43,535 nucleotides of DNA from a virus. Its lineage: Duplodnaviria > Heunggongvirae > Uroviricota > Caudoviricetes. Position numbers and translations under genes: made by a program. Location: IMG/VR virus record IMGVR_UViG_2740892272_000004; one strand, given 5' to 3'. A model generated the notes under the pieces. It did not search any database and was not told the DNA's origin. It saw only the letters and a list, made by a program, of their open reading frames with translations. Positions 5,336 to 5,987 of the stretch are shown here, in pieces; position 1 is the stretch's first letter, and the number at the start of each line of letters is the position of its first letter.

Positions 5336-5526
5336 ATTTGATTTATTTAATTGATACAACAAATAACACGAAATGTCATTAGCGAAAATTTATGAGTTTG
5401 ATCACTAATTTTAAACGGTGCTGTAACGCATAAGTGCTGAATGATTGTACATTTGAATACCGCAAAGCAAACAAATCAACTAATTTATAGAAGTCAATTG
5501 GTTAATTGCCAGCGTAAGAGGCTGCT

Positions 5527-5820
5527 ATGGACAATCATGTAACGACGAGAAATCGAAAAATGATTGAAAATGCGGAAATCTATAATGATTATTTTTCCGA
5601 TTATTCAGATGCCTGCAAATACAGTTCGAGTGCGGGAGAGTTCATATGCTTCAACTTTTTTATTAAATCTTATGTTTTTCCTCCACAGCAAGAAGATGGA
5701 GGTGTGCCACCTCCTGAAATCACTTTGCACCGTATAGCCTCCGTCTCAATGATGGAGCAACAGGCTAATGAGCTGTATAGCATTCTGGGAACGATTCTAC
5801 AAAAGCGTGAATCGGACTAA
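5527..5820 (+). CDS. Hypothetical protein (97 aa), AT-rich, divergent from com/mom
   Basis: ATG preceded by AAGAGG; low-GC codon usage distinct from the surrounding prophage; no recognisable family. Confidence 0.4.
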   Translation: MDNHVTTRNRKMIENAEIYNDYFSDYSDACKYSSSAGEFICFNFFIKSYVFPPQQEDGGVPPPEITLHRIASVSMMEQQANELYSILGTILQKRESD

Positions 5821-5987
5821 TGATACCGGTTCATTTGCCTGCCCGGATGGGGAAGCAGGATTGACTGCTCCATAAGCAGCTATATTTCTGAATACGAAAT
5901 ACTATCCAGCGATTACATATGGCTGGATAGCGGCAAAGATGTTTTCATTAGTGTCAAACCGGCAGAGGACACCACCGGTTTGTATTG

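Follow-up and report, generated by a model that had tools for sequence, protein, structure and literature searches.

Genes and features at the locus

The DNA studied here is a stretch of 43,535 nucleotides from a tailed phage (Caudoviricetes; IMG/VR record IMGVR_UViG_2740892272_000004), which is called the window at its full length. It carries a Mu-like prophage and, next to the prophage genes com and mom, a small open reading frame (ORF) of 97 codons, ORF97, that reads away from them. We analyzed ORF97 and its surroundings as a candidate moron, a small extra phage gene that is absent from close relatives (PMC10884400).

ORF97 (5527..5820, plus strand) starts with ATG, is divergent from com/mom and codes for an acidic soluble protein of an uncharacterized family (pI 4.7, net charge -6). 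On its left side are located com (5070..5270, minus strand; Pfam Zn_ribbon_Com, E 7.5e-13), which codes for the zinc-ribbon translational activator of mom, and mom itself (4379..5074, minus strand; Pfam Mom PF25680, E 6.5e-78; phrog_1384), a DNA-modification anti-restriction gene. On the right side, convergent with ORF97, is the DUF826 gene (5988..6242, minus strand; Pfam DUF826, E 6.4e-16). These three genes are landmarks that flank the unit under study.

An earlier note on this DNA had described a plus-strand ORF of 97 amino acids (aa) divergent from com/mom, with AT-rich DNA upstream, no recognizable family and the look of a separate plus-strand unit of unclear function. We came to the same picture: the upstream region has a GC content of 34-35% compared to 53.5% in the window, and searches of Pfam, PHROGs, PADLOC and NCBIfam produced no family match for the protein. 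The intergenic region, which the note placed at 5316..5526 (210 bp), had to be redrawn. The start of Com is most likely the ATG at 5270, since this codon is homologous to the N-terminus of Mu Com and RefSeq annotates the same start on identical DNA. Therefore, the region between com and ORF97 spans positions 5271-5526 (256 bp). What went unnoticed in the note is that the first ~95 bp of this region form a promoter block, that the DNA beyond is a replaceable cassette, that other genes occupy the same slot in related prophages, and that the ORF97 family is found in cargo slots elsewhere.

ORF97 as a gene

A Shine-Dalgarno sequence AAGAGG (5516..5521, plus strand) precedes the ATG of ORF97 by 5 nt and is kept in the divergent alleles M3 and CI5 (GAGAGG). 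In RefSeq, the start of the gene is placed at an internal methionine, which gives a product of 86 aa. This start cannot be general because the methionine is a threonine in the CI5 allele, where the longer N-terminus is conserved at full length.

The window and CI5 versions of ORF97 are 79% identical. Between them we counted 12.8 synonymous and 21.2 non-synonymous changes (dS 0.27, dN 0.10), with a dN/dS ratio of 0.37 over the 34 substitutions. The length, the start and the Shine-Dalgarno sequence are all kept in CI5 despite the DNA divergence of ~15%. Judged by its pattern of sequence change, ORF97 is a genuine gene under purifying selection.

The gene is rare, being present in 18 of 5426 E. 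coli genomes. DNA identical to positions 5250-6050 was found in 15 complete E. coli genomes, and three more had a near-identical or 83%-identical version. Two independent insertions of IS1 into ORF97 were observed, after codons 67 and 37. The alleles P0011 and P0014, which come from other E. coli isolates, end in GNDSNLLIVFYVQIMPDD; this is the translated end of IS1, as matched to an annotated IS1A in locus L027.

A sequence profile search of ORF97 against the PDB gave only noise with E > 1, and no DNA-binding or antitoxin domain was found in the protein in Pfam and NCBIfam.

The exchangeable slot and its cargo

On the com-proximal side, conservation across the prophages is near-perfect up to position 5365 (ACAACAAATA, 5356-5365), and the sequences diverge beyond it. 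On the far side, conservation resumes at a hairpin that begins at 5956. The ORF97 cassette enclosed between these edges has a length of 590 bp (5366 to ~5955) and a GC content of 39.5%, against 53.5% in the window; such a distinct base composition is also a mark of morons.

The conserved left edge is the control block of the com/mom promoter (5271..5365, minus strand), which is nearly identical in all cargo types. It includes a palindrome, AATCGATCG-N7-CGATCGATT (5314-5338), with two GATC (Dam) sites at 5318 and 5331; at the equivalent position, GATC sites of the ATCGATCG type are found in Pmom of phage Mu. A third GATC site, at 5400, is situated within the cassette.

The first part of the cassette is the AT-rich region upstream of ORF97 (5366..5526, plus strand; GC 34.8%), which could serve as leader and/or promoter and is confined to prophages with the ORF97 cargo. 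Its identity to the CI5 counterpart is 88%, whereas the region 3' of the gene (5821-5945) has only 59%. Compared with the O157-type cargo, the upstream region has weak similarity only and otherwise no counterpart.

We observed several other fillings of the slot. In most prophages of this kind in E. coli O157 and Shiga toxin-producing E. coli (STEC), the slot holds a plus-strand gene for a basic protein of 154 aa with a C-terminal zinc ribbon. In a Mu-like phage borne by an Stx phage, it holds a 64-aa version of the same protein, and a Dcm-type methyltransferase gene stands in the place of mom. In FORC_043, a truncated copy of the 154-aa protein gene is accompanied by a small minus-strand gene. 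Of the 233 genomes with this com region, 18 have ORF97 in the slot.

Thus the interiors of the ORF97, O157, Stx-phage-Mu and FORC_043 types differ between conserved neighbors, as is the case for morons and their replacements in related phages. With its content differing between conserved edges, the locus behaves as a moron slot.

Two of these fillings had features of their own. The 154-aa cargo, the commonest in the slot (L007 4306-4770, E. coli O157:H7), has a pI of 9.9, and the zinc ribbon at its C-terminus is of the form CxxC...CxxC. No Shine-Dalgarno sequence precedes its ATG, which follows a predicted -10 element at ~6 nt; given the lack of the one and the closeness of the other, the mRNA of this cargo may be leaderless. 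In the Mu-like phage residing in the Stx2c phage LC727881 (L001 2815-3867), com is followed by a gene for a 350-aa Dcm-type cytosine methyltransferase, with no mom. Since the Dcm-type enzyme replaces mom there, the Com-controlled position can hold different DNA-modification enzymes.

Homologs of ORF97 and their partner genes

The earlier note had proposed a profile search with the 97-aa protein and had named, as grounds for refutation, a missing plus-strand transcript and a lack of conservation of the ORF in relatives. Remote homologs of the same length were found by such a search and, together with purifying selection, they show the ORF to be conserved. Among 1.84 billion representative proteins the sole remote relative was a 97-aa protein of Yersinia enterocolitica (P0015; profile search, E 7e-4), whose locus was also matched by tblastn (3e-9). 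With the Yersinia protein included in the profile, a 99-aa homolog was found in Salmonella (P0016; 57% identity). Running tblastn against phage genomes yielded a 98-aa homolog in the E. coli phage vB_EcoS-733R5. No ORF97 homolog was found in the species-representative genome scan or on plasmids.

The E. coli alleles and the homologs from Yersinia and Salmonella, with identities of 28-57% and the same length, share 22 invariant positions; the phage 733R5 protein was left out of this alignment. Proteins of the family have pI values of 4.5-5.7, without a conserved pattern of cysteines and histidines and without a membrane segment.

The genomic settings of the homologs have much in common. In lambdoid prophages of Yersinia, the homolog heads an operon of three genes (97, 95 and 123 aa; A, B and C below) located between a cI-type repressor gene and N, in the orientation of the repressor. 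Phage 733R5 and the E. coli prophages related to it have the same A-B-C set, placed there at the extreme end of the prophage beside yfdC or pphA; the C proteins are 51% identical. B and C are kept together with A in two unrelated prophage types.

In phage lambda, the rexAB exclusion genes, which are expressed in the lysogen, sit between cI and N. The operon of the Yersinia homolog occupies exactly the same position, between the repressor gene and N and in the orientation of the repressor. On the other hand, RexA and RexB have no sequence similarity to ORF97, which stands alone and in a different type of phage.

In Salmonella, the homolog belongs to a different Mu-like prophage, one without com/mom, and is the first gene inward from the right end. 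The stop codon of the homolog overlaps by 4 bp the start of a gene for a 126-aa protein, with a coiled coil, a C-terminal membrane helix and a weak similarity to XhlA/hemolysin. In PADLOC, this partner had only a coiled-coil match to PbeC (0.016). The Salmonella enterica prophage (L023 6735-6830) has the end repeats ATTATTCAAGATA and is inserted beside the P2-type tail genes U/D/ogr; farthest to the right in this prophage are the genes for the ORF97 homolog and for the membrane protein.

No family was found for B, C and the Salmonella 126-aa protein in Pfam, PADLOC, NCBIfam or PDB; C matches phrog_5954, a group of unknown function. The loci in Yersinia, Salmonella and phage 733R5 have a GC content of 37-44%, compared to 46-54% in their surroundings. 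No upstream sequence is shared among the window, Yersinia and Salmonella loci. The family was seen only in cargo positions of enterobacterial prophages. In the window it stands alone; elsewhere it heads small operons, either A-B-C or A with the gene of a membrane protein.

Cassettes of three small-protein genes (~97, 81-95 and 92-123 aa) were located at L009 6001-6951, L025 1347-2277 and L026 9048-9978, and the one in phage vB_EcoS-733R5 is close to a reverse-transcriptase gene. We regard the three-gene cassette as a candidate for an as yet undescribed prophage cargo system.

Transcription signals and DNA motifs

Scanning with our own position-weight model, we found the best-scoring predicted sigma-70 promoter at 5351..5379 (plus strand; TTGATA-17-TGTCAT, 8.45 bits), a prediction only. 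Its -35 element is situated inside the conserved Pmom block. The predicted promoter is identical in CI5 and has the form TTGATA-17-AGTCAT in the O157 type. A second candidate at consensus level is TCGACA-16-TTTATT (5320-5347).

The earlier note had seen an AAACCGG...CCGGTTT stem at about 5950..5977, downstream of the ORF. The stem exists and is conserved; it lies at 5956-5962/5975-5981, and it belongs to the phage backbone and not to the ORF97 unit in particular. With its T-rich tail, TTTGTATTGTT, the element extends over 5956..5992 (plus strand) and overlaps the stop codon of the DUF826 gene. The hairpin is conserved in all the cargo types examined (ORF97, O157, Stx-phage-Mu and FORC_043), folds at -11.7 kcal/mol in the window and at -18.9 kcal/mol in CI5, and has the T-rich tail on the plus strand only. 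On these sequence features, it is probably a plus-strand intrinsic terminator that marks the right edge of the cassette and forms part of the backbone common to all cargo types.

An 8-bp inverted repeat that the note had placed at 5912..5940 turned out to be a real stem of another size and place: a 9-bp hairpin, CTATCCAGC...GCTGGATAG, at 5902-5910/5922-5930 (plus strand; -16.6 kcal/mol, z -4.8). It is specific to the lineage and is destroyed in the CI5 allele, in the 3' region of low identity.

A structured leader or riboswitch upstream of ORF97 was considered and rejected, as the leader folds no better than its shuffles (z +0.6) and has no covarying pairs. An Rfam search over 5200-6100 gave nothing above the gathering threshold; the best match, IS102 RNA, had 21 bits against a threshold of 46 bits (E 0.41). 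The leader segment 5441-5452 (ATGATTGTACAT) is complementary at 11 of 12 positions to the start and the first three codons of ORF97 (5527-5538). This pairing is present in the minimum-energy fold, yet the fold of the leader is no better than that of shuffles and shows no covariation.

Upstream of ORF97, the earlier note had pointed to a near-copy of the left-end motif of the prophage at 5449..5461. The sequence CATTTGAATACCG is indeed there, shifted by one base, with one exact match in the window (5450-5462, plus strand), but its meaning as a copy of the end motif is not supported. The true end motif, ATTTGATACCG, has three copies at the left end (42710-42868); the prophage has three copies of ATTTGATAC(C/T)G at its left end, which is near 42872. 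Relative to the end motif, CATTTGAATACCG has an insertion of 1 nt (an extra A). With one edit allowed, five matches to the end motif were found in the window, the three true end sites and two others, compared to 1.39 expected by chance. In the relatives, the TACCG part of the 5450 motif is changed to TGCCG (M3) and CACCG (CI5). Because of the inserted base, the chance frequency and the changes in both divergent alleles, we reject an internal Mu-type transposase site at 5450-5462 and consider the motif a chance resemblance.

Prophage setting

Among the window proteins, Pfam identified MuA, MuB, the Mu portal, gpT, the tail sheath and Gin, as expected for a Mu-like transposable prophage, here on the minus strand. 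The Mu transposase is encoded at 39586-41673, MuB at 38571-39512 and the Gin-type invertase at 8745-9317, all within this minus-strand prophage. The element is an Sp18-type Mu-like prophage. In the carrier strains, the prophage interrupts the unrelated chromosomal genes citF, xdhA and flgL, as could be expected since the phage is transposable. SfMu was rejected as a carrier, being a closer relative of Mu and without this region.

In prophages of this type, the interval between gin and com has three minus-strand genes (DUF6645/SASA esterase, DUF1378 and DUF826), after which comes the ORF97 locus. In phage Mu, the mom promoter directly follows gin, and nothing is found in the ORF97 position.

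In relatives of the window prophage, the mom stop codon is followed by ~125 bp that contain ATTTGATACCG repeats; this right end is missing from the window prophage. Right after the mom stop (~4368), the sequence gives way to the 3' portion of a transposase gene of the IS66 family (window 3996-4375), and at the other side the left end of the prophage abuts an IS66 tnpB-like sequence (window 42872-43535). It appears that an IS66-family element has trapped the prophage and that part of the prophage was deleted together with this element. Given the loss of the right end and the trapping, the prophage should no longer be capable of transposition. Elsewhere in the window, an ipaH-type leucine-rich-repeat/E3-ligase gene of full length (571 aa) adjoins remnants of the tail-fiber and tail-fiber-assembly genes of another phage (window 301-2016, plus strand, and 2196-3942, minus strand), which points to Shigella or enteroinvasive E. 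coli as the source of the window.

The frame of mom is open over 310 codons (4379-5311, minus strand), back through all of com to a GTG at 5311, and there is an ATG at 5283, directly behind the GGAGG located ahead of com. The long open frame is probably incidental, though unusual for overlapping genes.

Discussion

There is nothing out of the ordinary for a phage in ORF97 and its surroundings, and chance accounts for the majority of the DNA motifs that had been flagged nearby. In our analysis there is about an even chance that the unit is a moron that is expressed in the lysogen and whose product acts in conflicts between phages or between phage and host.

Such a moron would work as follows. 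The cassette would have been inserted into a recombination-prone slot, bounded by the com/mom control block on one side and by the probable terminator hairpin after the DUF826 gene on the other. ORF97 would be transcribed away from com/mom by host RNA polymerase with sigma-70. Its promoter would be situated where the mom control block ends distally, overlapping with or adjacent to the upstream portion of the mom promoter, in the manner of Mu momP2. Thus placed, ORF97 would be made when the late activator is absent, in the lysogen or in early infection, and would be off when mom is on. The transcript would end at the conserved 5956-5981 hairpin and therefore would not run antisense into the late genes. 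The product, a small, acidic and non-enzymatic-looking protein, would bind another protein and most likely protect the lysogen by superinfection exclusion or defense. Since prophage cargo positions, among them a slot linked to a repressor, are the only places where the family was seen, service to the lysogen in conflicts with other phages is the most likely role.

The comparison with described morons supports the assignment in several respects. Small moron proteins are known to give phage defense, for instance gp15 of HK97 and the 83-aa Tab protein of the Pseudomonas Mu-like phage JBD26 (PMC10884400). Besides being small, extra and of deviant base composition, ORF97 shares with morons the bracketing by a putative promoter and terminator, a short product without similarity to known domains, and a Mu-like host phage. 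It differs from HK97 gp15 and Tab in having no sequence relationship to them. It differs also in position, since tab is in the late operon between the terminase genes while ORF97 lies at the right end and reads away from com/mom.

The slot can be likened to the prophage diversity hotspots, which hold exchanged conflict cargo (PMC9122126). In both cases, a short locus between conserved landmarks has its content swapped among similar prophages. The ORF97 slot is smaller (~0.5-0.7 kb compared to 1-5 kb) and is found in another phage family and at another position.

The promoter arrangement has a parallel in Mu. There, the leftward promoter momP2 overlaps momP1, and RNA polymerase stays on momP2 without the activator C and is moved to momP1 by C; the roles of Dam, OxyR, C and momP2 at the mom promoter are known for Mu only (PMC3378877, PMC4287176). 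As in Mu, a GATC-rich control block is located upstream of com/mom in the window, and a predicted leftward promoter overlaps its distal part. While momP2 of Mu faces the gin end with no gene assigned to it, in the window there is a gene downstream of the predicted promoter. The window and Mu also differ in how the GATC sites are spaced from com.

Several observations weigh against a lysogen-expressed conflict gene. A generic promoter scan called no promoter upstream of ORF97, and the one predicted at 5351-5379 is only a weak match to the consensus. A generic terminator scan did not call the 5956-5981 hairpin either, owing to the length of its loop in the window. We saw about four types of cargo in the slot, with no recognized defense system among them. 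ORF97, its homologs and the partners B and C have no match in PADLOC-DB v2 at E <= 1, and ORF97 has no similarity to a known defense or anti-defense protein in the libraries searched. AlphaFold2, run on ORF97 with 7-row alignments that were narrow at first and then widened, reached mean pLDDT values of 51 and 52; both models were unusable and so provide no evidence on the fold. In some isolates ORF97 is interrupted by IS1 or frameshifted, from which it follows that the gene is dispensable. Finally, as we infer it, the step from a cargo slot to defense is one of guilt by association.

The behavior of the partner genes suggests a different explanation, which we consider unlikely. Protein A could be an antidote to, or a regulator of, a toxic or abortive-infection effector, and the Mu-like prophage would have retained A alone. 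A solo A could then disarm systems of the host or of a rival prophage, as counter-defense or anti-addiction, or could be a leftover from which the effector was lost. Since A is always the first gene and the partners downstream vary, A may be seen as a neutralizer or regulator and its solo copy as an orphan antidote. The stop/start overlap of 4 bp in Salmonella, the retention of B and C with A in unrelated prophages, and the coiled-coil membrane partner, plausible as a membrane-damaging effector, are all consistent with such a role. So are the small size and acidity of A, typical of many antitoxins and inhibitors, and the proximity of ORF97 to mom, another counter-defense function. The window locus itself argues otherwise: no relic of B, C or the membrane protein gene is left downstream of ORF97, where nothing is coding, and the adjacent cognate toxin gene that a type II antitoxin has in its operon is absent. 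Moreover, ORF97 has no DNA-binding or known antitoxin domain, and no toxin family was recognized in B or C.

The direct neighborhood of com/mom raises the question of whether ORF97 is a counter-defense partner of Mom, an early inhibitor of host restriction or defense that would shield unmodified incoming DNA and complement the late action of Mom. A small acidic protein with no enzymatic motif would suit this task, an independent promoter, as predicted, would allow expression before the late genes, and in a sister prophage the neighbor of the slot is a Dcm-type methyltransferase, also an anti-restriction function. Still, we find this partnership quite unlikely. The Yersinia homolog, located between cI and N in the orientation of cI, has a position of the lysogen type rather than an early lytic one, other homologs reside in phages without mom, and no similarity to Ocr, ArdA or other known inhibitors was detected in the libraries searched.

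It is very unlikely that ORF97 is a decaying or non-functional remnant, carried along with AT-rich junk DNA and having no current role. Such a remnant would agree with the narrow distribution among E. coli genomes (18/5426), the IS1 insertions and frameshifted copies, the low AlphaFold confidence, and the state of the window prophage, which is itself defective with its right end lost. It would not explain the dN/dS of 0.37 over 34 substitutions, the length, start and Shine-Dalgarno sequence kept at ~15% DNA divergence, or the homologs that at 28-57% identity maintain the length and the 22 invariant positions.

A regulator of com/mom, or a DNA-level element whose motif and hairpins are transposase-binding or other cis-acting sites, is highly improbable: the divergence of ORF97 from the mom promoter, the resemblance of CATTTGAATACCG to the end motif and the third GATC at 5400 in the cassette are outweighed by unrelated genes in sister prophages with the same mom promoter block, homologs in phages without com/mom, the lack of a DNA-binding domain, a motif that has an insertion, occurs at chance frequency and is not conserved, and a 5902-5930 hairpin that is not conserved either. 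With slot content varying beside an identical mom promoter block and homologs found without mom, the role of a mom regulator was rejected.

Returning to the reading of ORF97 as a lysogen-expressed moron, two points may be of modest interest: the family recurs in lysogen-expressed cargo positions with conserved partners, and the slot is perhaps driven by an equivalent of momP2. A broader proposal is tentative and, on our estimate, somewhat improbable. The A family would be what the variants of an as yet undescribed conflict system carried by prophages have in common: A-B-C in Yersinia and E. coli prophages, and A with a membrane effector in the Salmonella prophage. The solo version beside mom in Mu-like prophages of E. 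coli and Shigella would be a minimal exclusion factor or an orphan antidote against such systems, and the gap between the mom promoter and DUF826 would be an unnoticed hotspot of conflict genes in Sp18-type Mu-like prophages, driven by a momP2 equivalent.

If ORF97 is not expressed or is without effect, it would be one more hypothetical prophage gene. If it is expressed in the lysogen and affects other phages, it would add a family of small, structurally unassigned proteins to the known conflict genes encoded by prophages. The reading, if true, would also point to a slot with readily exchanged content in the Mu-like prophages, common among pathogenic E. coli O157/STEC and Shigella, and it would give a biological job to a leftward promoter of the momP2 type, seen in Mu only as a competitor of the mom promoter.

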